Positions 17,289 through 43,369 of a DNA stretch of 43,369 bases are shown here, in pieces. The DNA is from an uncultured Thermotogae bacterium (GTDB lineage Bacteria > Bipolaricaulota > Bipolaricaulia > UBA7950 > UBA9294). The DNA lies in the NCBI GenBank assembly GCA_964654805.1, contig CAZZJU010000001.1:1-43369 (forward strand), in the 5' to 3' direction. The position numbers and the translations under genes were made by a program. A model generated the notes under the pieces. It had not been told where the DNA came from, made no database searches, and was given only the letters and a program-made list of their open reading frames with translations. How positions within the stretch are numbered: the first letter of the stretch is position 1; every line of letters begins with the position of its first letter.

Positions 17289-17339
17289 GAACGACGTGCG
17301 ACTTCTTTGTGTAGGAAAGTTTGAGAAATTTACCAGTTA

Positions 17340-17352: not shown

Positions 17353-17367
17353 ACTAGATATTGTTCA

Positions 17368-17385
17368 TACCGGTCAGTCCAATAT
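17368..17385 (-). promoter_or_regulatory. Candidate operator, reading ATATTGGACTGACCGGTA on the gene strand
   Basis: The 18 nt are identical to 23266-23283. The site sits immediately downstream of the predicted -10 of the GntR operon promoter. Confidence 0.45.
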
Positions 17386-17386
17386 C

Positions 17387-17415
17387 AATATATGGATAAA
17401 TACAGCATATGTCAA
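17387..17415 (-). promoter_or_regulatory. Sigma70-like promoter of the GntR/creatininase/ABC/AOR operon
   Basis: TTGACA (17415-17410), a 17-nt spacer, then TATATT (17392-17387). Confidence 0.5.
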
Positions 17416-17436
17416 GAGGAACTTGCGATTCACGTC

Positions 17437-17553
17437 TCAATGGAAGAGTAAAAGAAACACTCCAATGGCTATTCCACACCCAAGCACCGCTCCGACAAGA
17501 GCGGGAAGAAACAACTCGTACAACGCGATCACTGCACCCAGAAACTTACGCAT
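17437..17553 (-). CDS. Possible 38-aa hydrophobic micro-protein
   Basis: ATG at 17553 is preceded by AAGGAGGT and overlaps the ATPase stop (CATAATGCGTAA). The product MRKFLGAVIALYELFLPALVGAVLGCGIAIGVFLLLFH has one predicted TM helix. Confidence 0.4.
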   Translation of the reverse strand: MRKFLGAVIALYELFLPALVGAVLGCGIAIGVFLLLFH

Positions 17554-19524: not shown

Positions 19525-19525
19525 G

Positions 19526-20434
19526 CTACCGTACCTCCGTCAGTCGCCGTAGCTTGGGGTCGAGAGCATCTCTGATTCCGTCACCCAGCAGGTTGAATCC
19601 CAGTACCAGGAGCATGATGGCCAATCCCGGGAAAGTGGACACCCACCAGGCTTGAAACAGGTATAGTCTTCCATCGCTTACCATCCGCCCCCACTCCGCC
19701 AGCGGTGGCTGCGCCCCAAACCCGAGGAAGCTAAGAGCAGCTGTTTGGAGGACAACTGCTCCCATATCCAAGGTTAGGGTAACTAAAATTGGAGAAAGAC
19801 AATTAGGGAGCACATGCTTACGAATTATCATCCAGTTACTCGCACCTCGTGAACGCGCTGCCTCCACGTATAGACTTTCCCGCACAGCGAGCACTTGTCC
19901 TCGAACGAGGCGGGTGTAAAGAGGCCACCATACCAAAGCCAACGCCGCCATTGCATTTTTTAACCCGGGCCCTATCGCTGCCGAGACTGCCATCGCCAAG
20001 ATGAGAGAAGGGAAAGACAGGAAGATATCGGTTATCCGGAGGATTACTTCATCCACCCATCCGCCTAGATATCCAGCGATCCCGCCGAGCAGGACTCCTG
20101 TGGGGACTGCTAGGGAGAGGATTATCACTCCGGCGATAGCGCTATGACGTGCTCCGACAAGGAGTCGGCTGAGAATATCCCGACCCATCTTGTCGGTGCC
20201 GAGCAGATGGCTTGCTGTTGGAGGACTGAACCGATGTGCGAGATCGGGCTCATAAGGATCGTAGGGAGCAAGCTTTCCGCCGAAGATGGCAATGAAATAA
20301 AATACAACGATAATGATAAAACCGCTTACTGCTAGAGGGTTCTTCCGCAGGACATATAGAGTAAGCCCCATTTCCTTAAGTGTTGGGGCAAGACGGCGCT
20401 TGAGGAGACGATAGCGCTTAGACAGAGACAGCAT
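19526..20434 (-). CDS. Opp/Dpp-type ABC permease (OppC-like)
   Basis: It is a 302-aa polytopic protein with [15 protein letters not shown] and [26 protein letters not shown]. Confidence 0.9.
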
Positions 20435-20438
20435 CGCT

Positions 20439-21455
20439 TCACCTCGCTTTCTCTCCCATGCGGATCCGGGGGTCGATTATGCTGTACAGGATGTCAATGA
20501 ACAGGTTGGACAGAATCATCATCAACGCCACAACGAGTGTGTAGCCAACCATTGCTGGCAAATCAATCAGCACAATAGAACCAGCCGCGTAGCGACCCAT
20601 TCCTGGCCATGCGAATATGGTCTCTAGGAGTACTGATCCCGCGATTAGCCAACCGAACTGGATTCCCAGCACCGTTAATGGGGGTATCACCGCATTGCGA
20701 AACGCGTGACGGAAGTGAAGGATCCACGATGGTAAGCCCTTGGCTCTAGCAGTTACAATATATTCCGCACCAAGGACTTCCAACATGCTGGAGCGGGTGA
20801 TCCGCACGATGTAACCCATAATCCAAAAGCCGAGAGTAAACGCTGGTAGGATGAAATGTCGCAATGCATCTCCAAAGGCGGTTAGGTTCCCCTGGAGCAG
20901 TGAGTCCAACAACACGAATCCGGTAATATTGTGAATCTCTACACTGATACGCCCCCCCGACGGCAACCAATTCAACCGGTAGTAAAAGAAGAATTGGAGT
21001 AGAAGCGCTGACCAGAATATCGGCGTTGATACACCGATTAGTGAGAAGACACGGGAAGCATGATCGATCCAGCTATTACGCTTAATAGCAGAAATTGCCC
21101 CCAGCGGTATACCAACAAACACCGCGAAAAAAAACGCGATCATTGCCAATTCAAACGTGGCGGGAAAGTACGTGATCAAGTCCTTAAGTACAGCACGATG
21201 CGTGGTGGGAGATACGCCGAAATCTCCGTGCAACAAGTTCCAGATATAGTAGCCCAGCTGAACGTATAGTGGATCGTTCAAGTGATAGCGCTCAGCAAGT
21301 GCCTGTACCTGCTCCTCGCGTGCATGAGGACCAGCCCATTCGCGGGCAGGATCAGCTGGGATTACGTATGCGATCGTGAAGATGAGAATAATAACGCCGA
21401 GGAGCACCGGAAACACAAGAAGCAATCTTCGTATGATATATCTCCACAAAGACAC
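20439..21455 (-). CDS. Opp/Dpp-type ABC permease (OppB-like)
   Basis: GTG at 21455 is preceded by AAAGGAGA. It has N-terminus MSLWRYIIRRLLLVFPVLLGV and EYIVTARAKGLPSWILHFRHAFRNA. Confidence 0.9.
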   Translation of the reverse strand: MSLWRYIIRRLLLVFPVLLGVIILIFTIAYVIPADPAREWAGPHAREEQVQALAERYHLNDPLYVQLGYYIWNLLHGDFGVSPTTHRAVLKDLITYFPATFELAMIAFFFAVFVGIPLGAISAIKRNSWIDHASRVFSLIGVSTPIFWSALLLQFFFYYRLNWLPSGGRISVEIHNITGFVLLDSLLQGNLTAFGDALRHFILPAFTLGFWIMGYIVRITRSSMLEVLGAEYIVTARAKGLPSWILHFRHAFRNAVIPPLTVLGIQFGWLIAGSVLLETIFAWPGMGRYAAGSIVLIDLPAMVGYTLVVALMMILSNLFIDILYSIIDPRIRMGEKAR

Positions 21456-21479
21456 GTTTCTCCTTTGGATTTAAAACAT

Positions 21480-21512
21480 CCCGGCACCGCAAGTCTCCCT
21501 CACGGTGCCGGG
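21480..21512 (-). promoter_or_regulatory. Intercistronic GC-rich stem-loop (possible partial terminator) after the SBP gene
   Basis: CCCGGCACCG-13 nt-CGGTGCCGGG forms a perfect 10-bp stem. On the gene strand it is followed by ATGTTTTAAA. Confidence 0.6.
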
Positions 21513-21529
21513 TGATCACATATGCTCCA

Positions 21530-23125
21530 CTACCAACCCTTGGAAATCGCGTAGAAGTCGGGTGGCATAACCGGGTTGTAGTAGAATCCTTTGACCCAAG
21601 TGCGCCTTACTGCGATGCTCTTTTTCTGAGCAAGCCATATGTACGGCACTTCTTTAGCAGCTAGTTCTTGAATCTGAGCATACAAGTCCGCGCGCTTATC
21701 TCGATTAGGTTCCCACTTAGCCTTATCAATCAGCTCGTTCATAGCAGCATTGGAGTACGCTTTCCAGAAATGAGCGGGGCCGATCAATGCGTCTGTATAA
21801 TCGTCAGGATCAGCGTAGTCCGGATACCAACCTGCTATTAACAGGTCCAGTTCACCCTGACGCATCAGGTTATGGAGTACGGAGAAAGTGCCAACGCGGA
21901 TCGTGGCTTGGATGCCGAGCTTCCTTAGTTCATTCTGCCACATGACCGCGATTTGCTGTGCTGTTTCTCTCCCCTGCCCAACGGAGATTTCCAGCGTCAA
22001 CGGTTTTCCGGTATGCGGGTCTATTCGGGCTCCGGAAGTATTTTTCGTGTATCCGGCAAGATCTAGTAGTTGGGCTGCCTTATCCAAGTTGAAAGTGTAA
22101 ATGGTCTCAGGTTTGGTATACCCGAACATCCCTTCAGGGATGGGGCCGTATAAACGTTGGGCGTAACCTTGATAAATGTACTTGATAAGCTTATCGTACG
22201 GTACCGTCCACGCGAGGGCCTGCCGCAGGGAAACGTCTTGCAGCACTCCGGTTTTACAATTAATAACTACGAAGTCAATGTTGAACGATGGGAAAGGCTC
22301 GACGACCACTCCCGAGGATCCAAGCAGATCGGGGATGTTCGTTTCTGGGAATTCATATACGATGTCAGCATCTCCTCGTTTTACCAGCATAACTTCGGTA
22401 CCAACTTCGGGGACCACGCGGACTTCTACTTGTTTGAGCGGAGCTGGCCCCCGCCAGTAATCATCAAATCGCTCCAGCACTACTCTGTCGTTAGGGATCC
22501 ATTCCTTAAGTTGGTAAGGTCCTGAGCCGTATTCGTTCCTGGACGCCCATTCGTTCTCTGCACCGTCGATTACACCACCGTGCGCCTCTACTTGGCGAGA
22601 GTTAACAATGCTTGCAGTAATTATGCTCAGTACGGATAGAAAGGCGGCGTACGGTTTGGTTAGAGTGATCTGTACCGTATAGTCGTCGATCACCTTAGTA
22701 CTATTCAGGTCCATACATTGCGAGAGCATCCACGCCGGGCCTTGGTTCATGCGGAGAACACGATCGAAGGAATACTTGACGTCTTTTGCAGTGACGGGGG
22801 TACCATCGTGAAACTTAGCGTCCTTGCGCAAGTAGAATGTCCATACTAACCCATCATCCGAGCAACTCCAATGGGTAGCTAATCGTGGTACGAACTTAGT
22901 TGAATCCGCTCCGTCATAACCCACCAGTCTGTCATACGTGTTTCGCAGGATCAGCCAACCCCGAATCGTGTATGAAACGGCTGGATCAAGAGTTGTTGGT
23001 TCACCATAGATCAACAATACTAACTTATCGGGGTTGGTTATCCGTCCTTCCCCGAGGGAGAGAAGTCCCATTCCAGACACCAATAGAACCACAGAAATCG
23101 CGATTAGCAACCAATTACGCTTCAC
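21530..23125 (-). CDS. ABC substrate-binding protein, family 5 (peptide/nickel type), paralog 2
   Basis: GTG at 23125 is preceded by AAGGAGGT. It has signal peptide MKRNWLLIAISVVLLVSGMG. Its 531 aa and TFYLRKDAKFHDGTPV motif parallel the other SBP. Confidence 0.9.
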   Translation of the reverse strand: MKRNWLLIAISVVLLVSGMGLLSLGEGRITNPDKLVLLIYGEPTTLDPAVSYTIRGWLILRNTYDRLVGYDGADSTKFVPRLATHWSCSDDGLVWTFYLRKDAKFHDGTPVTAKDVKYSFDRVLRMNQGPAWMLSQCMDLNSTKVIDDYTVQITLTKPYAAFLSVLSIITASIVNSRQVEAHGGVIDGAENEWASRNEYGSGPYQLKEWIPNDRVVLERFDDYWRGPAPLKQVEVRVVPEVGTEVMLVKRGDADIVYEFPETNIPDLLGSSGVVVEPFPSFNIDFVVINCKTGVLQDVSLRQALAWTVPYDKLIKYIYQGYAQRLYGPIPEGMFGYTKPETIYTFNLDKAAQLLDLAGYTKNTSGARIDPHTGKPLTLEISVGQGRETAQQIAVMWQNELRKLGIQATIRVGTFSVLHNLMRQGELDLLIAGWYPDYADPDDYTDALIGPAHFWKAYSNAAMNELIDKAKWEPNRDKRADLYAQIQELAAKEVPYIWLAQKKSIAVRRTWVKGFYYNPVMPPDFYAISKGW

Positions 23126-27880: not shown

Positions 27881-28297
27881 ATGGCAAAACGGATCTCCGT
27901 GATCGATATGGAGCGGTGCGTGGGATGCGAATCATGCATGTTTGCGTGCACACGGCGTTTCGGGGTAGGAGGAACGGGGAAGGCTTGTATAGCGGTCCGG
28001 TCTGCAGGCGGGATCAGGCGAGGATTCGTGGTAGTCGTCTGTCGGGCGTGTTCCGACCCACCGTGCGCACGTGCCTGCCCGACCGATGCCCTCACCGTGC
28101 GGGACGGCGGTGGGGTTATCTTCCACCCGAACGAATGCTTGGGCTGCGGGAACTGCCTCGATGCCTGCCCGTACGGCGCTGTATTCTGGGACGAGGTAGC
28201 GGGGAAGCCGCAGATCTGTGTATATTGCGGAATATGCGCTCAGTACTGCCCATACGATGTCATTGCGCTGGAGGAGGTGCCAAATGGTGCCGGGTGA
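27881..28297 (+). CDS. Four-cluster 4Fe-4S ferredoxin-domain protein (AOR electron-transfer partner)
   Basis: ATG at 27881 is preceded by GGGAGG, so the ORF-track start at 27800 is rejected. It has four Cys motifs: CVGCESCMFAC, CRACSDPPCARACP, CLGCGNCLDACP and CVYCGICAQYCP. Confidence 0.88.
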   Translation: MAKRISVIDMERCVGCESCMFACTRRFGVGGTGKACIAVRSAGGIRRGFVVVVCRACSDPPCARACPTDALTVRDGGGVIFHPNECLGCGNCLDACPYGAVFWDEVAGKPQICVYCGICAQYCPYDVIALEEVPNGAG

Positions 28298-30029
28298 TCC
28301 GCTCTGTCGAGTGCTCACGATCGATCTCTCCCACCGCAGCTTCCGCATCGATGACCGGCCGGAGCTGTTCGCCGCCGGGATCGGAGGAACCGGGGTGGGA
28401 ATCCGCCTACTGAACGAGCTCTGTCCTCTGGGGACCGATCCGCTCGGGCCGGATAATCCGATCATCCTCGCGGTCGGTCCGTTGGTCGGGCTGTATCCTC
28501 TCGCTTCGAAGACGGTAGCGATGTTCAAATCACCGCACACCGGCAACTTGGGGGAGGGGCATGCCGGCGGGCGCAGCGCGGTGTCGATCCGCATGGCCGG
28601 TTACGGAGCGATCGTCGTCCGCGGGGCGAGCAGCAGGCCGGTGTACCTAGTGATCGAGGACGGCCGCGTCCGGTTCCGCGACGCCTCCGCCCTGTGGGGA
28701 CTCTCCACCAGTGCCACGGTGGGGAGCGTGATCCGCGAGCGGGAACCCGGATCGGGGTACCGGTCGATTATGCGCATCGGTCCGGCCGGGGAGAAGAAAG
28801 TCTCCTACGCCTGCGTGATCGTCGACACCTACCGCCACTTCGGCCGGCTCGGACTGGGGGCAGTGTTCGGGAGCAAGAACCTCAAGGGGATAGTCGTTAT
28901 CGGAAAGCGGACCCTTCCCACGGCCGATCCGCGCGGCTATCGGAAAGTCTACGACGAGATATTCCGTGCTGCTACTGCATCGCCGCTGATGAAGAAATAT
29001 CACGAGCTGGGAACGCCGATGAACGTGCTCCCGCTCAACGAGCTCGGTGCCCTGCCCACACGGAACCTGAAACAGGCTCAGTTCGAGGGAGCACAGGATA
29101 TCTCCGGCGAGCGATTGGCCGAGACCGTCCTCGGCCGGCGGCTCGCCTGCGCCCACTGCCCGGTGGCGTGTATCCACCTCGCTGCCCTGCGCGTCCCTCA
29201 TCCCAAGGAGCCGTACTTCTACAAGACCGCGATGGTCGGCTACGACTACGAACCGATCTACTCTCTGGGAACGATGCTCGGAATATCGTCCTCCACTGGA
29301 TTACTCGAGCTGATCGACGAGGTGGAATCGCAGGGGCTCGACGCGATGAGCACCGGGGTGGTCCTTGCCTGGGCGACCGAAGCGCTGGAGAAAGGGCTGA
29401 TCTCAACAGCGGAGACCGATGGGATCACGCTTTCTTTCGGTGACTATGCCGGTTACATCGCGGCCGTGCGTCGCATCGTGACCCAGCCGAACGAGTTCTA
29501 CCGCGCCCTGGCCCACGGAGCCGAGCGCGCCGCCTCGATCTACGGTGGCCTCGACTTCGCGCTGACATTCGGGAAAAACGAGATGCCGGGATACCACACC
29601 GGACCAGGAGCCGCCCTCACCTTCCTCGCCGGAGCACGGCACAGCCACCTCGACAGCGCCGGCTACAGCGTCGATCAGAAGGCGGCGGCGAGCGGTGAGG
29701 CCCTCTCTCCGGACACCCTTGCCGAACGGCTGCTCGCCGAGGAGAGCTGGCGCCAGGTGCTCTCCAGCCTCGTTGTCTGCTTCTTCTCCCGCGGGATCTA
29801 CTCCCCGCCGGTGGTTGCCGATGCGTTGCGAGCTTGGGGAATTGAGCTGGATACGGATGCGCTGGAAGAGTTCGGCCGCGATGTGCTGGCACGGAAGCAC
29901 GCGTTCAAGGCACGTGAGGGGTTTAATGTTGAGAAGGTCCGGATACCACGCCGGATCCTGGAGACTCCCACCCCACTCGGACGGATCAATGAATCATTCC
30001 TGAGAAAAGCGTTGACAAAGTTCAAATAG
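28284..30029 (+). CDS. aor: Aldehyde:ferredoxin oxidoreductase (tungstopterin AOR family), paralog 2
   Basis: ATG at 28284 is preceded by GGAGGAGGTG and overlaps the ferredoxin gene by 14 nt. Motifs include CAHCPVAC and DYEPIYSLGT. It is much more GC-rich than paralog 1. Confidence 0.9.
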   Translation: MVPGDPLCRVLTIDLSHRSFRIDDRPELFAAGIGGTGVGIRLLNELCPLGTDPLGPDNPIILAVGPLVGLYPLASKTVAMFKSPHTGNLGEGHAGGRSAVSIRMAGYGAIVVRGASSRPVYLVIEDGRVRFRDASALWGLSTSATVGSVIREREPGSGYRSIMRIGPAGEKKVSYACVIVDTYRHFGRLGLGAVFGSKNLKGIVVIGKRTLPTADPRGYRKVYDEIFRAATASPLMKKYHELGTPMNVLPLNELGALPTRNLKQAQFEGAQDISGERLAETVLGRRLACAHCPVACIHLAALRVPHPKEPYFYKTAMVGYDYEPIYSLGTMLGISSSTGLLELIDEVESQGLDAMSTGVVLAWATEALEKGLISTAETDGITLSFGDYAGYIAAVRRIVTQPNEFYRALAHGAERAASIYGGLDFALTFGKNEMPGYHTGPGAALTFLAGARHSHLDSAGYSVDQKAAASGEALSPDTLAERLLAEESWRQVLSSLVVCFFSRGIYSPPVVADALRAWGIELDTDALEEFGRDVLARKHAFKAREGFNVEKVRIPRRILETPTPLGRINESFLRKALTKFK

Positions 30030-30035
30030 ACCTTG

Positions 30036-30107
30036 AGCCGGCGAGAGGACTTGAACCTCCGACCCACGGTTTACGAAACCGTTGCTCTACCACTGAGCTA
30101 CGCCGGC
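30036..30107 (-). tRNA. tRNA-Thr (anticodon CGU), CCA not encoded
   Basis: I folded a cloverleaf by hand. The acceptor stem is GCCGGCG/CGCCGGC, the D stem GCTC/GAGC and the anticodon stem ACGGT/ACCGT. The anticodon loop is TTCGTAA and the T arm is GGAGG-TTCAAGT-CCTCT. Confidence 0.9.
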
Positions 30108-33770: not shown

Positions 33771-34366
33771 AGCCGACCGCTCAGATCCCGTTCGTCATCG
33801 ATCGCACCGGTCATGTCGAGCGCACCTACGATATTTACTCTCGCTTGCTTGAGGATCGGATAATCTTCCTGCGTCAACAGATTGACGATGAAGTGGCGAA
33901 CGTGGTGATCGCCCAGATGCTGTTCCTTGCAGCGAAGGATCCGAATAAGGACATCAAGCTGTACATAAATTCTCCCGGTGGATCTGTTACCGCCGGGTTT
34001 GCCATCTACGACACCATGCAATATGTGAGCTGCGATGTTTCTACAATCTGCATTGGGCAGGCAGCGAGTATGGCCGCAGTCCTTCTTGCTGCCGGGACAA
34101 AGGGAAAACGTTCGGCCCTCCCCAACTCGCGCATCCTCATTCACCAGATATTCGGCGGTGCGCAAGGACAAGCGATCGATGTTAAGATCCAGACTGACGA
34201 GCTTCTCCGAATGCGGGATCAGATAAACCGAATCCTCGCCCATCACACTGGTCAGACGGTAAAAAAGATCACCAAGGATACCGACCGTGACTTCTATATG
34301 TCTCCGGAGGAAGCGAAAGAGTATGGAATCATTGATCGGATCATCGCTCCCAAGGCGAGTAAGTGA
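33767..34366 (+). CDS. clpP: ATP-dependent Clp protease proteolytic subunit
   Basis: Motifs include [44 protein letters not shown] and ILIHQ. Confidence 0.95.
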
Positions 34367-34517
34367 ACATCTTTCATAAAAACGGCCGTAGCCAAAGTAG
34401 CTGCTGATTCGCTCACACTGACTTCCTGGGCTCGCATATATATATGACAAACTCGGTTGAACGAGTTGATGAACCGAGTCTAACACGGGTTGGCGCTGAA
34501 TGATCAGCTATTACCTC

Positions 34518-34546
34518 TTGACAAGCAGCGATAAACGTGCTATATG
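34518..34546 (+). promoter_or_regulatory. Sigma70-like promoter of the lacI-led sugar cluster
   Basis: TTGACA (34518-34523), a 17-nt spacer, then TATATG (34541-34546). The operator-like repeats start at its 3' edge. Confidence 0.5.
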
Positions 34547-34582
34547 TAACGTTACCGGTAACGATACCGATAACGTTACCAG
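34547..34582 (+). repeat. Three tandem 12-bp units carrying LacI-type palindromic half-sites
   Basis: The units are TAACGTTACCGG, TAACGATACCGA and TAACGTTACCAG. GTAACGTTAC (34546-34555) is a perfect palindrome with a central CG. ATAACGTTAC (34570-34579) is a 9/10 copy. Confidence 0.7.
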
Positions 34583-34590
34583 AGGATATA

Positions 34591-35610
34591 ATGAATCAGC
34601 ACGTGACGATTCGCGATGTGGCTGCTGCCGCTGGGTTTTCCGTTAACACGGTCTCCCGGGCGCTGAACGATAAGCCCGATGTCAGCCCGGAGACGAAAGC
34701 ACGTGTGTTGGAGGCAGCACGACGCCTTGGTTACCGTCCAAATAAGCTTGCGCGGGGCCTTCGTTCAAATAAGACCCAGACCATCGGAGTAATTGTCGCT
34801 GATATAGCTAATCCATTTTTTGGTGCCGTAGTTAAAGGGGTAGAGGAAGCAGCTCGCGAGCATGACTTGAGCATCATCCTTGGCAATACCAATGAAGATT
34901 ACGAGAAAGAAGAAAAAGTAATCCAGACAATGCTTTCTGAACGGGTAGACGGATTATTAGTCACTCCAGTGCAAACCAAAAATGCGACAATCATTAAACT
35001 AGAAGAATCTGGTATGCCATTTGTATTACTGGGAAGGCATTTTAAGGATTTAGAAACTGATTATGTTGCTTCTGATGATGTCCAGGGAGGCTTTTTGGCT
35101 ACAGAGCGGTTGATAAAACTAGGGCATAGGAAGATTGCATTTATTAACGGTCCACTACATGTGTCGTCAGCTAAGGAGCGGTTTCAGGGATATAAAGCTG
35201 CGTTAGAACGATACGGACTAGTTCTTAAACCAACATTAGTGAAAAATGATGCTATTACAATGGAGGATGGCTACCGTGTTGCTAGGTTGTTATTAAGTCA
35301 CACTTCAAGACCCACTGCAGTTTTTGCATACAGTGATTTTGTAGCGCTAGGAGTAATAGAAGCAGCACATGAATGTGGACTTGCCATTCCTGATGACTTA
35401 TCAGTTGTAGGATACGATGATACTAATTTCGCTCGTGGATTAGCAGTTCCGCTAACTACGGTTCATATTCCCATAGATGAGCTTGGTAAACTAAGCATAG
35501 AAATCCTTCGGGAAAAAATTAATGGCAGCAATGTAACTCGACAAGTGAGAGTTCCAGTGAAGTTAGTCATCAGAAAATCGGATGCGGAGGTCCATGCGTT
35601 TGGAGACTAG
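34591..35610 (+). CDS. LacI-family transcriptional regulator
   Basis: ATG at 34591 is preceded by AGAGGA, so the ORF-track start at 34537, which reads through the repeats, is rejected. It has the HTH VTIRDVAAAAGFSVNTVSRALN and a periplasmic-binding-like effector domain. Confidence 0.9.
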   Translation: MNQHVTIRDVAAAAGFSVNTVSRALNDKPDVSPETKARVLEAARRLGYRPNKLARGLRSNKTQTIGVIVADIANPFFGAVVKGVEEAAREHDLSIILGNTNEDYEKEEKVIQTMLSERVDGLLVTPVQTKNATIIKLEESGMPFVLLGRHFKDLETDYVASDDVQGGFLATERLIKLGHRKIAFINGPLHVSSAKERFQGYKAALERYGLVLKPTLVKNDAITMEDGYRVARLLLSHTSRPTAVFAYSDFVALGVIEAAHECGLAIPDDLSVVGYDDTNFARGLAVPLTTVHIPIDELGKLSIEILREKINGSNVTRQVRVPVKLVIRKSDAEVHAFGD

Positions 35611-37687
35611 GGGCACGCTGTTTGTCACTTCGATTTGTATTGTAGTGACTAACATTGTATGGGGAGGAATGTTAGTGGGAGCTTATCAACTGGATTTGAA
35701 TAATTTAAATCTCCATTGGAAAGACCCGATTTATTTATCATATGCTGCTGATAATAGCCAAACAAATTATTTTCTCGACCAAGGGTATGACTTAGTATTT
35801 AACTCAAACTTTGGAGTTAGTTTTAAAACAACCAAAGTAGGAATATTGGGGCTGTTATTCGGTGTTAACACAGATATCGTTCCTCTAGATTCATACTATA
35901 GCCCTCCTATAATCAAGAGGACTTATAATGATATTGTAGAACTTAATTATTGTCCAGTAAGAGATTTAGCAGTAAACGAAATATTTTACGTAGCATCATC
36001 GTCTATTGCTTATCGACGGATAATCATAACTAATATTTCAAACCAAGAGTTAGTAGTACACATTCTTGCACTATTTCAGAAATTACCATTTGCTATGATG
36101 TTAGCGAATAAGCTCGTGGATGGTTTTGAATTCCCAATTTCAATTCCACCTGACAGCTGGCAGAAACATAACTTGGATCAGTATGAAGGGCACTTCCAGG
36201 CAGCTTTTATGAGCAAAGAACTAACCACAAAATCAGTCTACAGTGGAATTTGGGATCTTCAATTACAAACCGGGAGTGAGAGTATTCCGATATCTACGGC
36301 ACGCCGTGGCTCATTGTTAGTTCTTGGAAAACGTGCACTTCTGCAGCCAGGTGAAACGCAAACCTTTTATGTGATGTGGTGGAAAGGCGATAGAGGAGAG
36401 CAGCCACCTAACGTTGACACATTGGAGAACGGAAATTTAGAAGAAATATTCGCGATTAGGCATAAGTTGTATTCCCATGCTATGGGAAAATTGGCAGCAG
36501 AGGATCGTGAGCAAGCACTAGTTGGTTTCTCCTCTCTTCTTTTACTACGAGAACAGTTCATGCAAGCAGAAAATAGACTGCCTTACAACTATTACTTGTT
36601 CTCCCGCGAGCCAACTTGGGGATGGGGACATGCTGGCCAAGTGTTTCATGAAAGCATCGGTACTATTGCCTACGCGAATTTAGATGCCCATGGAGCAATA
36701 GACTCTCAACGCAATTTTTTCGCTATGCAGGATAACAATGGATACATCCCGTATCGCATTGGCCCTTATTTACGAGAGACAATAGACGGAAATACATCTT
36801 CAGCTCCTTTACTTAATTGGGAAAATTGGAAGATATACCAGATTACGCATGATAGAGAATTCCTTAAAGAAGCTTATTACCATGGAGCTCGGTTCTATGA
36901 ATGGTGGGAATGCTATCGCGATAAAGACCGTGATGGATTGTGTGAATGGGGGGGAAATCCAATATTGGAGTGTCTGCGCGATTCTCACAACGTTGTGTTT
37001 CAGCAGGTTTTAAACGGCAATCGTAAGAAGATATCTGCGTTGGAGGCCCTTGATTTGAACTGCTTCTTAGTGCGAGAAGCAGAAGCGCTTTCTTATATGG
37101 CAAAGGAACTGGGGTTAGTCGCTGCGGAAAAATGGCGTAATAAAGCAGAAACACGTAAAGAGTTAATCAATAATACTTTTTGGGACCCTAATACGGCGTT
37201 TTATTACCACGCTGATATGGCTACGAACGAAATACGACCGGAATTGAAGCGTAAGGAAATGATAGCGTTTCTAACCCTGTGGGCGCATGTTGCTAACCAA
37301 CGTCAAGCGCAATTATTGGTGAAGCAATTAACAGATCCCAATGTGTTCTGGCGAAGATACGGTGTATCTAGTATAGCGGCTGACGATCCTTATTACACTC
37401 CCAGTACTGGTGCTTGTAAATGGAACGGCCCCGTCTGGCCTCAATGGCAATATCTAATATTTGAAGGCTTATTGGACTATGGGTATGTGGATATAGCGAA
37501 AGCTTTACTGAGAAAACTTTTTAAGGCAATTGCTTATTGGTTAGTTAAAAGCCATAAATTTTGGGAGCAATATAACCCCGATCAGATCACAGAACAAAAA
37601 TCGCATAAAGATTATTACTGGACCGGCATTATATTTGAGATGTTACGAGCTATATACCAGAAAAGAGAAGGTGGTGTAGTACAGTGA
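35594..37687 (+). CDS. Glycoside hydrolase, (alpha/alpha)6-barrel GH63/GH37-like, with N-terminal signal anchor
   Basis: Motifs include NGYIPYRIGP, DRDGLCEWGG, LDLNCFLVREAEAL, FWDPNTAFYYHAD and KWNGPVWPQWQYLIFEGLLDYGY. ATG at 35594 follows GGAGG; alternative starts are 35582 and 35675. The N-terminus is hydrophobic (LFVTSICIVVTNIVWGGMLVG). Confidence 0.75.
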   Translation: MRLETRGTLFVTSICIVVTNIVWGGMLVGAYQLDLNNLNLHWKDPIYLSYAADNSQTNYFLDQGYDLVFNSNFGVSFKTTKVGILGLLFGVNTDIVPLDSYYSPPIIKRTYNDIVELNYCPVRDLAVNEIFYVASSSIAYRRIIITNISNQELVVHILALFQKLPFAMMLANKLVDGFEFPISIPPDSWQKHNLDQYEGHFQAAFMSKELTTKSVYSGIWDLQLQTGSESIPISTARRGSLLVLGKRALLQPGETQTFYVMWWKGDRGEQPPNVDTLENGNLEEIFAIRHKLYSHAMGKLAAEDREQALVGFSSLLLLREQFMQAENRLPYNYYLFSREPTWGWGHAGQVFHESIGTIAYANLDAHGAIDSQRNFFAMQDNNGYIPYRIGPYLRETIDGNTSSAPLLNWENWKIYQITHDREFLKEAYYHGARFYEWWECYRDKDRDGLCEWGGNPILECLRDSHNVVFQQVLNGNRKKISALEALDLNCFLVREAEALSYMAKELGLVAAEKWRNKAETRKELINNTFWDPNTAFYYHADMATNEIRPELKRKEMIAFLTLWAHVANQRQAQLLVKQLTDPNVFWRRYGVSSIAADDPYYTPSTGACKWNGPVWPQWQYLIFEGLLDYGYVDIAKALLRKLFKAIAYWLVKSHKFWEQYNPDQITEQKSHKDYYWTGIIFEMLRAIYQKREGGVVQ

Positions 37688-38673
37688 AAAACCGCACTCC
37701 ATTAGCAATAGCGGTGACAGGGAGTATGGTCCTATTTCTCCTTGTTTATTCTCTGGCTGTGTACGCTGCTGGGGAGAAGTCAGAGTATGGCACAGTTGGG
37801 AATGAGACGGTAATTATCTTCCACACTGAACACTTTGATGTGGAATTGGCAAAAAAATACGCCTCTTACAAATCTCTAATAATAAAATATCTAGAACAAG
37901 GTTATAGTATCTACTGTAAATATACAGGCTACGACATAAATGACGTTTCTCGCCGTATGGGGAACCGTCCTCGTTATCTTTTCCTGTTTCTTCTGCCGGA
38001 GGATATGTGGACCCCGGGATGGCAAGGAGGGCTCACTAGTGGAAACGTATCTCAAGTTACAGCGACTCTCTTACCCGGATTGAAACCTGAAGAAATTGAA
38101 AAGGGTAATCCTGCTCTTTCTATCATCTGGCATGAATTAGCTAATGGGTGGTCTAGCATTTACACCCATTATCCTGACGGGAGACCTAATTATGCTCCGT
38201 GGTGGTTTGCTTCCGAAGGGCATGCTGGATTCTTACGTCAGCATGCCATGGTGGATAGTGGCTGGCCAGTAGAACAAATAAGGGAATATAAGGTGGCACT
38301 TAGGGAGGTTGAGAAGTATCTTAGCGGAGAATCGTACGATCAGGGTCATGTATGTCATGTTTTGCTTCAAAGTCTGTGGGCAGAATATGGGTGGAATCTC
38401 TTCCGGGCCGTATACCATGCGATTCAGGAAGGGAAATTGTCTTTTCCTTACCCATTTGAAAAGAACAGTGTGATTAGGTCTTACTCGGTATTAATTCGCT
38501 TTCTTTCCGAAACTGCGGGTAGGAATTTAATACCTTTCTTTGCGCAGTTTAGGATCAAGGTGGACCGAGAAACGCAAGAGGCATTAGCAAAGTTGCCGAT
38601 AGCGAATATTCCTGTAGAACACAGCGTGCTAGTAAAGAACCCTAGACATCCATTACAAACAAAAAATGAATAA
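37684..38673 (+). CDS. Hypothetical secreted/anchored protein with degenerate gluzincin-like motif
   Basis: It overlaps the GH gene stop by 4 nt (GTGA; GTG start at 37684, no in-frame ATG nearby). It has an N-terminal hydrophobic segment LAIAVTGSMVLFLLVYSLAVYAAG. It also carries IWHELANGW...WWFASEGHAGF. Confidence 0.6.
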   Translation: MKNRTPLAIAVTGSMVLFLLVYSLAVYAAGEKSEYGTVGNETVIIFHTEHFDVELAKKYASYKSLIIKYLEQGYSIYCKYTGYDINDVSRRMGNRPRYLFLFLLPEDMWTPGWQGGLTSGNVSQVTATLLPGLKPEEIEKGNPALSIIWHELANGWSSIYTHYPDGRPNYAPWWFASEGHAGFLRQHAMVDSGWPVEQIREYKVALREVEKYLSGESYDQGHVCHVLLQSLWAEYGWNLFRAVYHAIQEGKLSFPYPFEKNSVIRSYSVLIRFLSETAGRNLIPFFAQFRIKVDRETQEALAKLPIANIPVEHSVLVKNPRHPLQTKNE

Positions 38674-38702
38674 TGGGTATATAAGTTAACATACTTGATC
38701 AT

Positions 38703-38735
38703 AGGAGGTGATAAATTATGTAATTTGTTATGTAG
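38703..38735 (+). promoter_or_regulatory. Orphan perfect SD followed by two start-stop mini-ORFs
   Basis: AGGAGGTGAT (38703-38712) is followed by ATGTAA (38718-38723), a 6-nt gap, and then ATGTAG (38730-38735). The real SBP start lies about 66 nt downstream of the SD. Confidence 0.4.
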
Positions 38736-38778
38736 AACAGACGCTCACAGTTCTAACTAAACAAGGAGGTGCATCGCT

Positions 38779-40089
38779 GTGAAAAAGGTTAGATGGTCAA
38801 CTATAGTCACGGTGGGAAGTTTGGTCCTATTATTACTCGCTTTCTCCCTTACCGGTCTTGCCCAAGAGAAGATTAAGTTGAGAGTTACTTCGTGGGCAGG
38901 TGCGGAAGAGGCAGCAATGGACCAACAGATCATCGCAAAGTTTTTGGAAACACATCCTAACGTTGAAGTCTCATATGAGCCAATCTCTGACAACTATTAC
39001 CAAAAGATTTTGACAGATATTGCTGCCGGTACCCCCCCAGACGTGCTGCTTTTAGATGGTGAAATGGTCCCAACATTTACCGAAGAAAAGGGATTGCTGT
39101 TGAACCTAGCTCCTTACGCGGATAGGATGAAAGATAAACCGGGAGCAGATTTAAGTGCGTATTTCCCAAACGTACTGCAAATTGATACAGTCGGACATGC
39201 TGTATATGCATTTCCTAAAGACTTTACCCCAATAGTTATTTACTACAACAAGAAACTATTTGACAAATTTGGTGTCCCTTATCCCCCAAAGGATGAGTGG
39301 GACTGGAACCAGTTCATGGCAACGGTAAAAGCTCTGACTAGGGATACCAATGGTGATGGGAAAACAGATGTATGGGGGTTCCGCTACGTTAATTGGGTTG
39401 GCTACAATGTACCGTGGATTTGGGCTGGTGGCGGTGCAATAATGAATCCAGATCGGACTAAGTGTGAGGGATATCTCAATAGTCCAGCCACCGTTAAGAC
39501 AATGGAGTTCTTAATCAACCTCGTTAAGAACGGATACTCTCCCACTCCTGAGACACAGAAAGCATTTGGTGGTGGCGCCGCTATGTTCTACACGGGTAAG
39601 GTAGCAATGGCTACTTCGGGGCATTGGTGGCTTCCCTCAATTTACGCTCAGATCAAGAAAGGTGCCGATCTTGACATCGGTATAGCTCCTATACCGCATA
39701 ATCCTGGCGGCAAAAATCCTACAGTAATTTATGAGTCCGGTTGGGCTGTCCCCAAATCTGTCAAAAACCGGAAACTGGCTGTGGAACTAGCGGCATGGCT
39801 CTCGGGACCATACGCACAGAAAGTTCGGACTGCAAATGGTTTAGCTATCTCTGCAATCAAGAGCATCGCTGAAGAGCAAGCGGCTAGCTCGGAATTAGAA
39901 CGGACGTTCATGAATATCGTGAAGGACGGCCGTCCCACTCTTGGATCTGAAACGAAGTTCTATCGCCCTCTTATAGAGGACACAATGGACGAGGCGATCG
40001 ATAAGGTTTTGGTCAAGGGCTGGACAGTGCAGCAAGCGCTGGATTGGGCAGCTAAGACCATCGATAAAACGATAGAGGAACGTTTGTAA
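38779..40089 (+). CDS. Sugar ABC substrate-binding protein (family 1, CUT1 type)
   Basis: GTG at 38779 is preceded by AAGGAGGTG. It has signal peptide MKKVRWSTIVTVGSLVLLLLAFSLTGLAQE. Its 436 aa and composition are typical of family 1. Confidence 0.88.
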   Translation: MKKVRWSTIVTVGSLVLLLLAFSLTGLAQEKIKLRVTSWAGAEEAAMDQQIIAKFLETHPNVEVSYEPISDNYYQKILTDIAAGTPPDVLLLDGEMVPTFTEEKGLLLNLAPYADRMKDKPGADLSAYFPNVLQIDTVGHAVYAFPKDFTPIVIYYNKKLFDKFGVPYPPKDEWDWNQFMATVKALTRDTNGDGKTDVWGFRYVNWVGYNVPWIWAGGGAIMNPDRTKCEGYLNSPATVKTMEFLINLVKNGYSPTPETQKAFGGGAAMFYTGKVAMATSGHWWLPSIYAQIKKGADLDIGIAPIPHNPGGKNPTVIYESGWAVPKSVKNRKLAVELAAWLSGPYAQKVRTANGLAISAIKSIAEEQAASSELERTFMNIVKDGRPTLGSETKFYRPLIEDTMDEAIDKVLVKGWTVQQALDWAAKTIDKTIEERL

Positions 40090-40104
40090 AGAAAGCACCT
40101 AACC

Positions 40105-40138
40105 GCCGGGGGGGCTGCTCTTGCGTAGTCTCCCCGGC
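40105..40138 (+). promoter_or_regulatory. Stem-loop directly after the sugar SBP gene
   Basis: GCCGGGG-20 nt-CCCCGGC forms a 7-bp GC stem. The ORF-track TTG start of the next gene (40121) lies inside its loop. Confidence 0.45.
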
Positions 40139-42787
40139 ATAAAAAGCATGGACAGAGCTTCAATGAAGACGAGTAAAGTTCTTATTATAATAGGGTTAAT
40201 AGGTGTAGTAATTGTCACCAGTGCTTGGCTCCTTTGCTTGCAAACGCGAAATAAAATTCTGGTGGCGTACAGAATATCTAGAGAAACTGAAGCGAAAGTT
40301 ATCAATGGTGTATATGAAAATTATATTGACAACTTAAATCGTAATGTGTATGCAGCAGCCGAACAGTTGTCTTTAGCAGCAAACGAGCAGCCTCAATTTG
40401 AAGAGTGGACTAACTACGTTGCAACCTCGCCGAATATCAAAAAATTATTCCTCAGGGCATGGTGGTTGTCTCCGGATGGTAAAGTGCTATACGCAACTAG
40501 TAAAGACCAACTATTTACGGAGGATTTTGCTTCTGACCCGATGTTCTCATCTGCTGAAGAAGGAGTAGTATACTCGGATTTATATACAGGTAATAAAACA
40601 GTTTATCTACGAACAATTTGTCCAGTTGTGCTACAAGACCAACATTATTTATTGGTAATAGATACTCGGTTTGGCACTAATTTTGTTAACAGTGTAAGGA
40701 AATTAGTCGAAGAAGATGTTGCTTTTCTATATGGATACAAGATATTCGCTGCTTCTTCCCCAAGGCTGCTTAGTACAAATTTCCAGATCCCGATCAAATT
40801 TCTAAACTCAGTCCGGGATAAACAAGAAGCTGGTTCGCAGACTGTAGAATTGGCGGGAGTAAAGTATTTAATAACAGCATATCCCGTCCTCGATTTCGAT
40901 GCGTGGGATACAAAAGGTTATATAGTACTTATACTCCCTGAGTCTACATTGATGTCAATAGTGCACAACATCTGGAAACAAATTCTACTCGGAATAGGGT
41001 TCTCTCTATTACTGTTAACCTTAGTAATATGCTACTTAACCCAGCGGGTTGCTAAGGTATTGATCAATAACGGGCATAAAGTAGCTAACACCGGATTCAA
41101 GCTACGGATGTGGCTTATAGCCTTTGTGGCTATTATACCAGTGATAGGCGTTCTTGTTTATGTCAGTTTTGTACCAGTGCCAACAATTATGGCGAAGTTT
41201 AATTCCGCACGCATCCGTATTAGTTCTCAGGAGATGGCTAACGTAGTATCAAAGCAAGCTGCTTTACTTACACAGGAGTATGCGTTGGAACCTAACGAGG
41301 CGAGTTCCCCACAGCAAGTACTTAAGCTGATAATGGCAGAAGGAGGGTTTGATTTCGCTGTTTTAGATCAAAAAGGAAAGATTACTACGGTGGGGTCATT
41401 GCCGACTAGCTATTTGCATTTGAAAGCAGACATTAGCCGAATATCGAATAATACTCCCCAACTAGTCGCAGGCAAGCACTGCGCTCTTTTCCTAGCCAAG
41501 GAGCTCTTTTCTACTGGTACTTTGATCTATGGATACGTTATAACGAAGGATTGGCTTAGAAAATTTGAGGATCGGGCCAATGCTGATCTAACTATATTTA
41601 TTGATGGAAAACCGATGGTCTCCACCGTGGAAACATGGACTCTTAGAACATTAAAACTTCTGTCCGGGGCTACGTGGAGAGGAAAGATATTACTCACTAA
41701 AGGCAAACTCAGGGATATATATCACGATATCGCGCTTATTCCGCTAACTCAGAGTGCGAAACCCCAGAAATTTGAATCCGTGTTGATGTTATCAGTGGAT
41801 GATACACCTTTCCAAAATAATATCACGAGTTATCACTTCACCGTTTTTGCCCTTATTCTTATAATTTTAAGTATTTTTTCCTTGTCGATTTTTGTGATGT
41901 TGAACGTTGATCGTCCACGGCTGCTCCGCTCAGTGTTCGTGGGGTATACATTCTTATCTCCTTCACTTATCCACCTGTTTTGGTGGGCAGTTGGCCCATT
42001 GCTATTCGCTGCTTATCTTGCCTTTCACCATTGGAGCATAATAAATCCTGCAAAGCCATTTGTAGGATTCGGCAACTTCATTGAATTAATGCATGATAAT
42101 ATATTTTGGCATTCTATGCTAAACACCGTTATTTATACACTGCAGGTACCTATTGGTATGGCATTATCTCTAGCAATCGCACTAGCCGTCAACCGTAAAG
42201 TGCGTGGGATTAGAGTGTTACGGACGGTGTACTATCTGCCAGCGGTTAGTTCATTAGTTGTTACGTCCATTATGTGGAGGTGGATATACAATCCGGATTT
42301 TGGAATTTTGAACTACCTGTTGGGCTTATTGGGGATTCCTAAGCTGCCATGGCTTACTTCTCCTTACATGGCAATGCCAGCGATTATGATCATGAGCATC
42401 TGGATGGTTATGGGCCAGCAGATGATCATTTTCCTTGCCGGGTTACAAAGCATCCCTCCTGAATATTATGATGCTGCTGGCGTTGACGGCGCTAATGCTT
42501 TTCAGCGGTTTTGGTATATTACTTTGCCTCTTTTGAAACCAACTACATTCTTTGTATTAGTGACGAGTGTAATAAGTTCATTTCAGGTGTTTACCCCAAT
42601 CTATGTATTGACTCAAGGAGGTCCGGTACGAAGCACAGATGTAGCTGTCTATCATATATGGCAAACCGCATGGCAGGAACTGCGAATGGGGTATGCTGCA
42701 GCAGAATCGTGGGTATTATTTGGCGTTATACTAGTATTTACTCTCATAGAGTTTAAATTATTAGGTAAAGAAATTAAATATGTCTGA
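40121..42787 (+). CDS. Fusion protein: two sensor-like extracytoplasmic domains (aa 1-599) plus a CUT1 sugar ABC permease (aa 600-888)
   Basis: It is one uninterrupted ORF. The start is uncertain (TTG 40121, ATG 40148 or ATG 40163). The permease part has the EAA loop LAGLQSIPPEYYDAAGVDGANAFQRFWYITLPLLKP. The N-terminal part has four TM helices flanking hydrophilic domains of about 245 aa and 220 aa. Confidence 0.75.
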   Translation: MRSLPGIKSMDRASMKTSKVLIIIGLIGVVIVTSAWLLCLQTRNKILVAYRISRETEAKVINGVYENYIDNLNRNVYAAAEQLSLAANEQPQFEEWTNYVATSPNIKKLFLRAWWLSPDGKVLYATSKDQLFTEDFASDPMFSSAEEGVVYSDLYTGNKTVYLRTICPVVLQDQHYLLVIDTRFGTNFVNSVRKLVEEDVAFLYGYKIFAASSPRLLSTNFQIPIKFLNSVRDKQEAGSQTVELAGVKYLITAYPVLDFDAWDTKGYIVLILPESTLMSIVHNIWKQILLGIGFSLLLLTLVICYLTQRVAKVLINNGHKVANTGFKLRMWLIAFVAIIPVIGVLVYVSFVPVPTIMAKFNSARIRISSQEMANVVSKQAALLTQEYALEPNEASSPQQVLKLIMAEGGFDFAVLDQKGKITTVGSLPTSYLHLKADISRISNNTPQLVAGKHCALFLAKELFSTGTLIYGYVITKDWLRKFEDRANADLTIFIDGKPMVSTVETWTLRTLKLLSGATWRGKILLTKGKLRDIYHDIALIPLTQSAKPQKFESVLMLSVDDTPFQNNITSYHFTVFALILIILSIFSLSIFVMLNVDRPRLLRSVFVGYTFLSPSLIHLFWWAVGPLLFAAYLAFHHWSIINPAKPFVGFGNFIELMHDNIFWHSMLNTVIYTLQVPIGMALSLAIALAVNRKVRGIRVLRTVYYLPAVSSLVVTSIMWRWIYNPDFGILNYLLGLLGIPKLPWLTSPYMAMPAIMIMSIWMVMGQQMIIFLAGLQSIPPEYYDAAGVDGANAFQRFWYITLPLLKPTTFFVLVTSVISSFQVFTPIYVLTQGGPVRSTDVAVYHIWQTAWQELRMGYAAAESWVLFGVILVFTLIEFKLLGKEIKYV

Positions 42788-42802
42788 TGAGGAGGTGCCC
42801 CA

Positions 42803-43369
42803 GTGTTACACCGGAGAATCATGAATAAAACGTTACTTGGGGTAGCCTATTTGCTTATTGGCGCACTTGCTATTACTACGCTATTTCCATTTTTGTGGAT
42901 GGTTTCTACGTCGTTAATGAGCGAGATGGAAGTGTATAGCTTCCCTCCAAAGATTTTCCCTAGCCATCCTCAATGGTCCAACTATAAAGAAGCAATGACA
43001 ATGCTTCCATGGGGGTGGTTTTTCTTCAACACTATTGTCATGGCAGTAGCAGTAGTAATCGGTCAGCTGTTCATTGTTTCTACCGGGGCGTATGCACTAG
43101 CTCGGCTCCGTTTCCCTGGTCGTGATAAAGTGTTCATCTTCTTTTTGCTGTTTATGATGCTTCCGTCGGCAGTGACATTGATCCCTGGATTCCTCATACT
43201 TCACAGCATGGGATGGGTAGATACCTACTGGGCATTAATTATTCCAAATCTTGGTAATATTTGGGGAATGTTCCTTACTCGACAATACATGATGACACTC
43301 CCCAGCAGTTTGGAAGACGCAGCGCGTATAGATGGCGCATCGGAGTTTACGATCTATTGGAAAATAGTA
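42803..43369 (+). CDS. Sugar ABC permease (MalG/UgpE-like), 3' end outside the window
   Basis: It is not in the ORF track because no stop is reached. GTG at 42803 lies 5 nt after GAGGAGGTG, with an alternative ATG at 42821. The frame is open to the window end. It has TLFPFLWMVSTSL and the EAA loop start LPSSLEDAARIDGASEF. Confidence 0.85.
   Translation, partial: MLHRRIMNKTLLGVAYLLIGALAITTLFPFLWMVSTSLMSEMEVYSFPPKIFPSHPQWSNYKEAMTMLPWGWFFFNTIVMAVAVVIGQLFIVSTGAYALARLRFPGRDKVFIFFLLFMMLPSAVTLIPGFLILHSMGWVDTYWALIIPNLGNIWGMFLTRQYMMTLPSSLEDAARIDGASEFTIYWKIV

Follow-up and report, generated by a model that had tools for sequence, protein, structure and literature searches.

Importers of the ATP-binding cassette (ABC) type are controlled for the most part from the membrane's cytoplasmic side, and the Cache domains known to us all feed signaling enzymes or chemoreceptors. 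The subject of this report is a gene that joins the two kinds of module. It lies in a 43,369-nucleotide stretch of DNA from an uncultured Thermotogae bacterium (GenBank assembly GCA_964654805.1, contig CAZZJU010000001.1, positions 1 to 43,369 of the forward strand; hereafter "the window"), and it encodes a CUT1-type sugar permease preceded by about 585 amino acids (aa) that we predict to form two tandem double Cache (dCache) domains. We tentatively read this extension as a built-in receptor for the substrate-binding protein (SBP) of the same transport system.

Among the described ABC transporters with comparable additions, MalF of the E. coli maltose transporter is an eight-helix permease whose P2 loop, ~180 aa between transmembrane helices (TM) 3 and 4, reaches up and binds the SBP. 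The type I importers OpuA and GlnPQ have substrate-binding domains fused to the permease. The MacB/FtsX/BceB-type (type VII) ABC systems possess a large external domain between TMs, which is mechanically coupled to the ATPase cycle, and BceB also takes part in sensing. On the sensor side, Cache domains are described as the most abundant type of extracytosolic sensor domain in bacteria, and in almost all dCache domains studied the ligand is bound in the distal module (PMC8050422). The dCache or dCache-like sensors that act via an SBP, several of them sugar-sensing, include LuxQ-LuxP, HptS-HptA, ChiS-CBP, VirA-ChvE and PctA-GltB (PMC8050422).

Domain architecture of the fused protein

The longest open reading frame (ORF) of the region runs uninterrupted from 40121 to 42787 on the plus strand, as the first-pass annotation of this DNA had described it, and counts 888 aa from a TTG at 40121. 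An ATG at 40163 (MKTSKV...) is the start in public gene calls and in all homologs and is probably the true one, giving a protein of 874 aa. Residue numbers below refer to the 874-aa form; those of the first-pass annotation are 14 higher. The gene, its parts and the two adjoining genes of the transport system are as follows.

40163..42787, plus strand: fused gene, predicted tandem dCache module and CUT1-type ABC permease, 874 aa from ATG
40178..40234, plus strand: TM1 (aa 6-24), hydropathy 2.79, preceded by a short basic cytoplasmic N-terminus
40235..40981, plus strand: extracytoplasmic domain 1 (aa 25-273), predicted dCache fold
40883..40921, plus strand: hairpin PVLDFDAWDTKGY (aa 241-253), part of the proximal module of domain 1
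40982..41173, plus strand: TM2 (aa 274-292), basic cytoplasmic loop (aa 293-318, with a conserved K-x-R-M) and TM3 (aa 319-337)
41174..41842, plus strand: extracytoplasmic domain 2 (aa 338-560), predicted dCache fold
41843..41938, plus strand: TM4 (aa 561-579), followed by a short conserved linker in the cytoplasm (N-x-D-R-P-x-L-L-R) into the first permease helix
41921..42787, plus strand: complete UgpA/SugA/MalF-type permease domain (aa 587-874)
42467..42529, plus strand: EAA-type loop YDAAGVDGANAFQRFWYITLP (aa 769-789), read directly from the sequence
38779..40089, plus strand: SBP_bac_1 substrate-binding protein, 436 aa, directly upstream of the fused gene (Pfam, 138 bits)
42803..43369, plus strand: second permease (UgpE/MalG type), 278 aa, with a GTG start after AGGAGG, gene truncated by the window end

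The four N-terminal TMs were located by a hydropathy scan (20-38, 288-306, 333-351 and 575-593 in the 888-aa numbering) and are separated by hydrophilic stretches of 249 aa and 223 aa. The short loops are basic, with three K/R and no D/E between TM2 and TM3, and three K/R and one D/E between TM4 and the permease. The hydropathy layout and these loops fit a topology in which the N-terminus is inside, both domains are outside and the N-terminus of the permease is brought to the cytoplasm, so that the four-TM arrangement proposed in the first-pass annotation, with its segments at the claimed places, proves coherent. It is common to all fused members of the family described below: the position of TM1 is kept in all 11, and the extracytoplasmic setting of both domains between two TMs, which follows from hydropathy and the positive-inside pattern, recurs with the same layout in 11 of 11. 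About 20 residues separate TM4 from the first permease helix, the cytoplasmic loops measure just ~20-26 aa, and the sole downstream domain is the permease. A cytoplasmic signaling output domain (kinase, signaling domain of methyl-accepting chemotaxis proteins, cyclase) is absent from the fused protein according to Pfam and NCBIfam scans and hydropathy.

The C-terminal 288 aa are a complete six-TM permease of the CUT1 type, because they cover the NCBIfam UgpA profile nearly end to end (positions 7-294 of 295, by aa 587-873) and because the closest solved chains are SugA (8ja7_A, E 1.3e-26), 7cad_A, AlgM1 and MalF. The UgpA equivalog cut-off is not reached (134 vs 335 bits), i.e. the protein is not UgpA itself. 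The permease motifs quoted earlier, VGYTFLSPSLIHLFWW (aa 593-608) and the EAA-type loop (aa 769-789), stand at the places given for them. The operon partners of a CUT1 system, the upstream SBP and the downstream second permease, are both present. Pfam finds only BPD_transp_1 (PF00528) in the fused protein, in its last ~200 residues (aa 682-871 of the 888-aa ORF, 56 bits vs a cut-off of 26.4), in agreement with the earlier remark that the N-terminal ~585 aa have no permease counterpart.

We considered the possibility that an indel near 41.9 kb, introduced in sequencing or assembly, has fused two adjacent genes. It is ruled out by the presence of the identical 874-aa protein in two assemblies, on an NCBI contig of a metagenome-assembled genome (MAG; GCA_054028715.1) and on an independently assembled Logan contig, and on all the evidence such an artefact is extremely improbable. 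Two homologs of 873-874 aa, one from an ENA metagenome and one from a MAG labeled Nitrospiraceae, are 58% and 47% identical to the N-terminal region with single-residue gaps only, and align ungapped across the permease junction, whose sequence DRPRLLRSVFVGYTF is conserved in the family. The fused layout is moreover shared by about ten diverged clusters of 741-890 aa. No support for an artefact was found: one relative looks split (L009, positions 4152-6424, MAG GCA_015657855.1, in which gene calling divides the long permease into two genes, for 306 and 464 aa), but the break coincides with two N bases of the assembly (5013-5014), and we rejected it as a natural two-gene version. Thus the fusion recurs in assemblies made independently and across diverged lineages and does not stem from a frameshift, as had been argued from its topology. 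The permease domain of L009 is nearly identical to a protein labeled Mesotoga sp.

Fold of the extracytoplasmic domains

In the N-terminal region of the window protein neither Pfam nor NCBIfam reports a significant match, the Pfam scan found no SBP family in the N-terminal 600 aa, and a PDB sequence search with a three-sequence N-terminal profile returned just a chance match to ribosomal protein L9 (E 0.036). From structure models, however, both hydrophilic domains are predicted to be dCache folds, each with two stacked PDC modules behind a long stalk helix.

Domain 1 comprises a stalk helix (aa 25-72), a distal module (~79-170) and a proximal module (~184-260). An AlphaFold (AF2) model of the N-terminal 581 aa, calculated from three sequences, has a predicted local distance difference test (pLDDT) score of 65-83 over this domain and shows the element order long helix, alpha/beta module, linker helix, second alpha/beta module and helix into TM2. 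A Foldseek search of the PDB with this model retrieved almost exclusively dCache ligand-binding domains (Mlp24, PctA/B/C, Tlp3, vpHK1S-Z8, 2p7j), with E-values down to 6.5e-8, ~250 aligned columns and target-normalized TM-scores mostly 0.5-0.63; this output carries no query range, and the matches were assigned to domain 1 by its higher confidence and by the order of secondary structures, since domain 2 was poorly modeled in that run. Domain 2 comprises a stalk helix, a distal module (~383-461) and a proximal module (~473-547). Modeled together with TM3 and TM4 from an 11-sequence alignment, it reached a mean pLDDT of 86.6 and a predicted TM-score (pTM) of 0.75, again with the dCache element order, and its top Foldseek matches were the extracytoplasmic domain of a sensor kinase (8w7p, E 1.2e-6), Mlp24, Tlp3, LuxQ, KinD, DctB and Mlp37. 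Across both models the Foldseek probability was 1.0 over ~230-270 columns to dCache domains, with target-normalized TM-scores mostly 0.4-0.63. The AlphaFold models and Foldseek matches thus substantiate the idea that both domains are of the Cache/PDC type and refine it to a double Cache in each, not a single PDC; the three strands singled out earlier lie on predicted beta-hairpins.

Matches to Cache families at the sequence level were obtained with relatives. Among the 11 family members the Pfam families matched most frequently are CHASE4, in three (best E 5e-6), dCache_3, in two (1.2e-6), and dCache_1, in one; relative to the Pfam thresholds, CHASE4 scores 25.5 vs 26.2 bits and dCache_1 19.3 vs 45, and P0003 shows a faint dCache_3 match. 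A histidine kinase (P0012) has a dCache_3 domain above threshold (28.6 vs 25.7) which aligns with domain 1, and on this alignment the two are judged to be homologous. In locus L011 (264-3204) the gene of this kinase lies directly downstream of, and overlaps, a gene for a PBP_like_2 (PstS-type) binding protein, so that here too an SBP gene adjoins a Cache domain of this kind.

BLASTP detects no similarity between domains 1 and 2 of the window protein. Their profiles are in register (hhalign E 0.002, probability 13%; cross-hits of hidden Markov models (HMMs) from the 11-sequence set at E ~1e-3), and an internal duplication giving rise to both is plausible. In the hairpin of domain 1, D244 is invariant and F245 and G252 are nearly invariant in the 11-sequence alignment. 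Its DxDxWD[IV] motif is also kept in minimal relatives of 430-500 aa, where it is the only recognizable motif retained.

Distribution and relatives of the fused permease

When 1.84 billion representative proteins were searched exhaustively by HMM, the N-terminal profile matched 11 of them at E <= 0.001: nine proteins of 741-890 aa ending in BPD_transp_1, one frameshifted fragment and one histidine kinase. We counted the two-domain forms as 11 clusters at 50% identity, besides which more divergent, reduced relatives exist. Two full dCache domains are predicted in the long forms (P0001-3, P0005, P0006, P0008), and the short forms (P0004, P0007, P0009, P0010, P0013; five of the 11 clusters) are without the distal module of domain 2. 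A word-indexed homolog search recovered three proteins, with the single N-terminal sequence and with the 11-sequence profile alike, and a scan of a genome collection with the close alignment recovered two relatives of the P0004 cluster and one chance match. The relatives come from sources labeled Nitrospiraceae, Thermotogota, Clostridia/Bacillota, Caldilineaceae and Gemmatimonadota (MAG labels as given). The architecture is therefore rare, conserved across MAG-labeled phyla and uncharacterized, and we found no description of a Cache-permease fusion in the open-access full-text literature, where searches by accession number likewise turned up no paper on the source genomes; the case that the first-pass annotation names as refuting its claim, an already common and characterized family, disagrees with these results.

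With the permease domain alone as query, the closest 120 relatives (46-68% identity) are of three kinds. Besides ordinary permeases of ~300 aa, there are proteins of 430-500 aa (e.g. P0070, P0081, P0083 and P0107, with P0083 labeled Gemmatimonadales), which consist of TM1, a domain of 90-145 aa with the DxDxWD[IV] hairpin, TM2 and then the permease; P0081 contains two additional TM helices and lacks a second domain. In the third kind, a few truncated proteins (P0063, P0093), a single chain holds the C-terminal end of an SBP, then one extra TM, which keeps the topology, and then the permease, so that SBP sequence sits at the same N-terminal position as the Cache module of the window protein; both proteins have a detectable SBP match, are N-terminally truncated and lie on short contigs. 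P0076 is a third candidate for such a chain, assigned from sequence alone. Because forms with a minimal module and forms carrying an SBP are both found among these 120 relatives, N-terminal additions appear to be a hallmark of this permease clade, and the window protein its most elaborate form.

Locus L012 (7660-17596) contains tandem paralogs: an SBP, a long permease of 741 aa, a permease and a GH172 enzyme, then an SBP, a long permease of 709 aa and a permease, with GntR and an MGH1-like hydrolase after the second system. In the 709-aa protein the proximal hairpin of domain 1 (AAPFLDYLSWHAEG) is retained, and the protein is too divergent for the library-wide search.

Evolutionary constraint

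We compared the window with the two loci of the close homologs, L002 and L001. In that order, identity is 93.6% and 84.5% for the SBP, 95.8% and 90.0% for the permease domain of the fused gene, 94.2% and 92.8% for the second permease, 58.0% and 47.4% for the Cache region, and 54.5% and 61.3% for the large hydrolase encoded nearby. By the Nei-Gojobori method, synonymous sites are saturated in every segment (proportion of synonymous differences, pS, 0.68-0.93), and the nonsynonymous distance (dN) is 0.31-0.47 in both hydrophilic domains vs 0.03-0.07 in the transporter core, i.e. the Cache region is ~10 times less constrained. In every part of the gene dN lies far below the saturated synonymous distance (dS), and the Cache region is therefore coding sequence under purifying selection. 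A mosaic origin by recombination, which the contrast between the core (94-96% identity) and the Cache region (58%) might suggest, was rejected on account of the saturation of synonymous sites in every segment, and we attribute the contrast to unequal constraint.

The best-conserved part of the Cache region is the membrane-proximal module of domain 1, with 69% identity among close and ~27% among distant relatives; for the distal module of the same domain the values are ~50% and ~16%. The transporter core is unusually conserved, given the saturated synonymous sites and the neighboring hydrolase at 55-61%. SBPs normally diverge faster than the 84-94% identity seen here would indicate.

Possible functions of the Cache module

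The first-pass annotation had raised ligand-gated import, substrate capture and SBP docking as possibilities, and the present data shift the balance among them. The reading that we tentatively favor, at somewhat less than an even chance, sees in the module a receptor, built into the transporter, for the SBP of the same system, one that assists or gates productive SBP docking and is not a second substrate site. The two TM-dCache-TM units would pack like the halves of a sensor-kinase or chemoreceptor dimer, with paired stalks and a four-helix bundle in the membrane, and this covalent pseudo-dimer would stand beside the face of the transporter where the SBP docks. Its conserved membrane-proximal part would touch the SBP in its sugar-loaded state, the permeases on their periplasmic face, or both; the contact would hold the SBP at the transporter, and productive docking, hence ATP-driven import, would depend on it. 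The variable distal modules may add a lineage-specific cue. Because the protein has no cytoplasmic output domain, the output would have to be the activity of the transporter itself.

The SBP-receptor reading is favored by the invariant presence of the SBP gene, which in every readable locus lies directly upstream of the long permease (a second permease of 268-302 aa lies directly downstream), by the concentration of conservation in the membrane-proximal module, at the height at which the SBP docks, by the dispensability of the distal module of domain 2, missing in five of the 11 clusters, by sister permeases to which an SBP is apparently fused at the same place, and by the published dCache and dCache-like receptors, which often work via SBPs (PMC8050422). 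Several points weigh against it. The window protein matches no Pfam Cache model above the gathering threshold (sCache_3_2 at E 0.17 only), the sister-clade SBP-permease fusions are seen just in truncated proteins on short contigs, and both the pseudo-dimer and the SBP contact are things that we infer. The main objection is that the SBP is 84-94% identical among the three close homologs vs 47-58% for the Cache region; since the one is near-invariant while the other diverges, a large co-evolving interface is unlikely, and a small conserved patch is the most to be expected. Furthermore, ordinary CUT1 importers work without such a module, which is thus not needed for docking as such.

The main rival is direct gating by a ligand, in which a small molecule outside the cell (the substrate, some breakdown product or an unrelated cue) would be bound by one or both dCache domains, and a piston or scissor motion of TM4 into the first permease helix would switch the importer on or off. 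The predicted fold is that of the ligand-binding sensor domains of kinases and chemoreceptors, domain 1 is the apparent homolog of the dCache_3 domain of a histidine kinase, the linker between TM4 and the permease is short and conserved, and the Cache region's fast divergence, when set against the core, fits a changing ligand specificity. However, the distal modules, which are the usual ligand site of dCache domains (PMC8050422), are the least conserved and one of them is absent in half the family, the minimal relatives retain a proximal-type remnant only, and several sugar-sensing dCache sensors detect the sugar via an SBP (PMC8050422), so that we regard direct gating as possible but unlikely. 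Equally doubtful, in our estimate, is that the protein represents a type I ABC importer with a sensor in cis, the first of its kind, in which helix movement induced by a ligand or by the SBP would be read out directly by the transporter.

Two further explanations seem less probable still. The Cache stack might capture an oligo- or polysaccharide, or hold the secreted or anchored hydrolases of the locus near the transporter, so that the products would be passed to the SBP. Such a role would suit the hydrolases found near the long permease in eight of nine related loci, the signal-bearing 329-aa protein encoded in the operon (see below) and the composition of the hairpin (PVLDFDAWD), rich in Asp and Trp, which are typical of sugar-binding sites. 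We nevertheless hold it to be quite improbable: the loci vary in their hydrolase families but not in having the Cache module and the SBP, Pfam scans detect no carbohydrate-binding module family, and the sugar-sensing dCache receptors reviewed in the literature never bind the sugar directly (PMC8050422). Improbable, too, is a structural or assembly role, in which a degenerate former sensor would merely stabilize, position or space the transporter in the envelope. The ~10-fold lower constraint on the Cache region (dN 0.31-0.47 vs 0.03-0.07), the failure of the window protein to reach any Pfam Cache model and the stepwise reduction of the domains in relatives are all in line with it, whereas the maintenance of ~585 aa in frame, nearly gapless and under purifying selection across deeply diverged lineages, and the persistence of motifs from proteins of Thermotogota-labeled MAGs to minimal forms, some of them labeled Gemmatimonadota, speak against it; the confident, well-packed models argue for functional domains.

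The family is naturally suited to asking how a conformational change in a Cache domain passes through the membrane, and whether nutrient uptake can be controlled, or SBP docking aided, from the outside. If receptor-gated import is true, Cache transmembrane signaling can drive a mechanical output other than a signaling enzyme.

Genomic neighborhood

Upstream of the SBP gene, the sugar-utilization locus of the window comprises the following genes.

34537..35610, plus strand: repressor of the LacI family, heading the locus (LacI/RbsR-type matches in NCBIfam and Pfam)
35582..37687, plus strand: MGH1-like (GH63-type) glycoside hydrolase of the same operon (Pfam MGH1-like_GH, 141 bits)
37684..38673, plus strand: secreted protein of 329 aa with a signal-like segment at its N-terminus, gene flanked by those of the hydrolase and the SBP

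Transcription of the locus would be left to the LacI-type repressor. The MGH1-like hydrolase starts with a hydrophobic segment, TLFVTSICIVVTNIVWGGMLVGA, and may be membrane-anchored or exported rather than cytoplasmic. The 329-aa protein belongs to no Pfam or NCBIfam family, the only match being Peptidase_M60 at E 0.087. The SBP has a signal peptide without a lipobox cysteine. The complete gene of the second permease is seen in L003, which continues the contig of the window and encodes further downstream (13474-22214) a GDE_C/GH116-like hydrolase of 1069 aa, a TPR protein, a GH127 beta-L-arabinofuranosidase-like enzyme, GalT, an M24 peptidase and GalK; these genes suggest a substrate containing galactose and possibly arabinofuranose. 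There is no ATPase gene in the locus of the window, as is common for CUT1 systems, and a MalK-type ATPase is encoded in the operon of the relatives L008 and L010.

Glycoside hydrolases near the long permease in the related loci are MGH1-like/GH63-like, ~1000-aa GDE_C/GH116-like, GH127 or GH172 enzymes, the MGH1-like type being present in seven of the nine. L014, a short contig, is the sole locus showing no hydrolase. The recurring cassette of SBP, long permease and second permease, usually accompanied by GH63-like, GH116-like, GH127 or GH172 enzymes, marks an uncharacterized glycan-utilization system.

Other features of the window

The G+C content changes strongly along the contig. It is 65-68% over the genes for aspartate kinase, ASD and threonine synthase, reaches 64% near one gene for aldehyde:ferredoxin oxidoreductase and is ~50-56% elsewhere, with only 42-45% in the whole sugar-utilization locus (positions 1-4000, 28000-30000 and 34000-43369). 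The low G+C of the sugar locus could reflect horizontal acquisition or a chimeric MAG contig. Two aldehyde:ferredoxin oxidoreductase genes (AFOR_N + AFOR_C; 10394-12262, minus strand, and 28218-30029, plus strand) hint at an anaerobe using tungsten or molybdenum enzymes. Two SBP_bac_5 (Opp/Dpp-type) genes (14115-15713 and 21530-23125, both minus strand), each followed by ORFs of the size of permeases and ATPases, suggest two peptide-type ABC importers in tandem regions, in which the putative permeases and ATPases are assigned by ORF size. A protein of 586 aa encoded at 4630-6390 (minus strand) matches DUF505 with 423 bits, and a tRNA-Thr (CGT) at 30035-30107 (minus strand) is the sole Rfam/ARAGORN match in the window.

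Comparison with known systems

The two domains of the window protein resemble those of dCache sensors (kinases, chemoreceptors) in predicted fold and in setting, i.e. TM, stalk helix, distal and proximal modules, TM. They differ in that a transporter membrane domain takes the place of the signaling output, that two domains stand in tandem in one chain instead of forming a homodimer, and that the proximal and not the distal module is the conserved part. LuxQ, an SBP-dependent dCache sensor, is among the structural matches of domain 2; in LuxQ-LuxP, HptS-HptA, ChiS-CBP and VirA-ChvE the output is a kinase (PMC8050422), whereas that of the window protein could only be the transporter.

On the transporter side, the permease core is like that of the CUT1 importers LpqY-SugABC, AlgM1M2SS-AlgQ2 and MalFGK2-MBP, and so are the SBP_bac_1 protein and the MalG/UgpE-type partner, but the solved and named CUT1 relatives are without the N-terminal extracytoplasmic extension of 585 aa and four TMs. 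The P2 loop of MalF is likewise an extra periplasmic domain built into a CUT1 permease. We rejected the extension as its equivalent, since it is N-terminal to the six-TM core and has four TMs of its own and a predicted dCache fold, and since the match to MalF covers the core only (query 64-239). OpuA and GlnPQ also join an extracytoplasmic domain to the membrane domain of a type I importer, but a fused binding domain of that type was rejected for the window protein, whose predicted fold is Cache and not that of periplasmic binding proteins and whose SBP is encoded by a separate gene upstream. Finally, the type VII ABC systems share with the window protein the placement of large external domains between TMs of an ABC membrane subunit and differ from it in that they are not SBP-dependent importers, have Porter and Sabre folds and carry the domain at another position.

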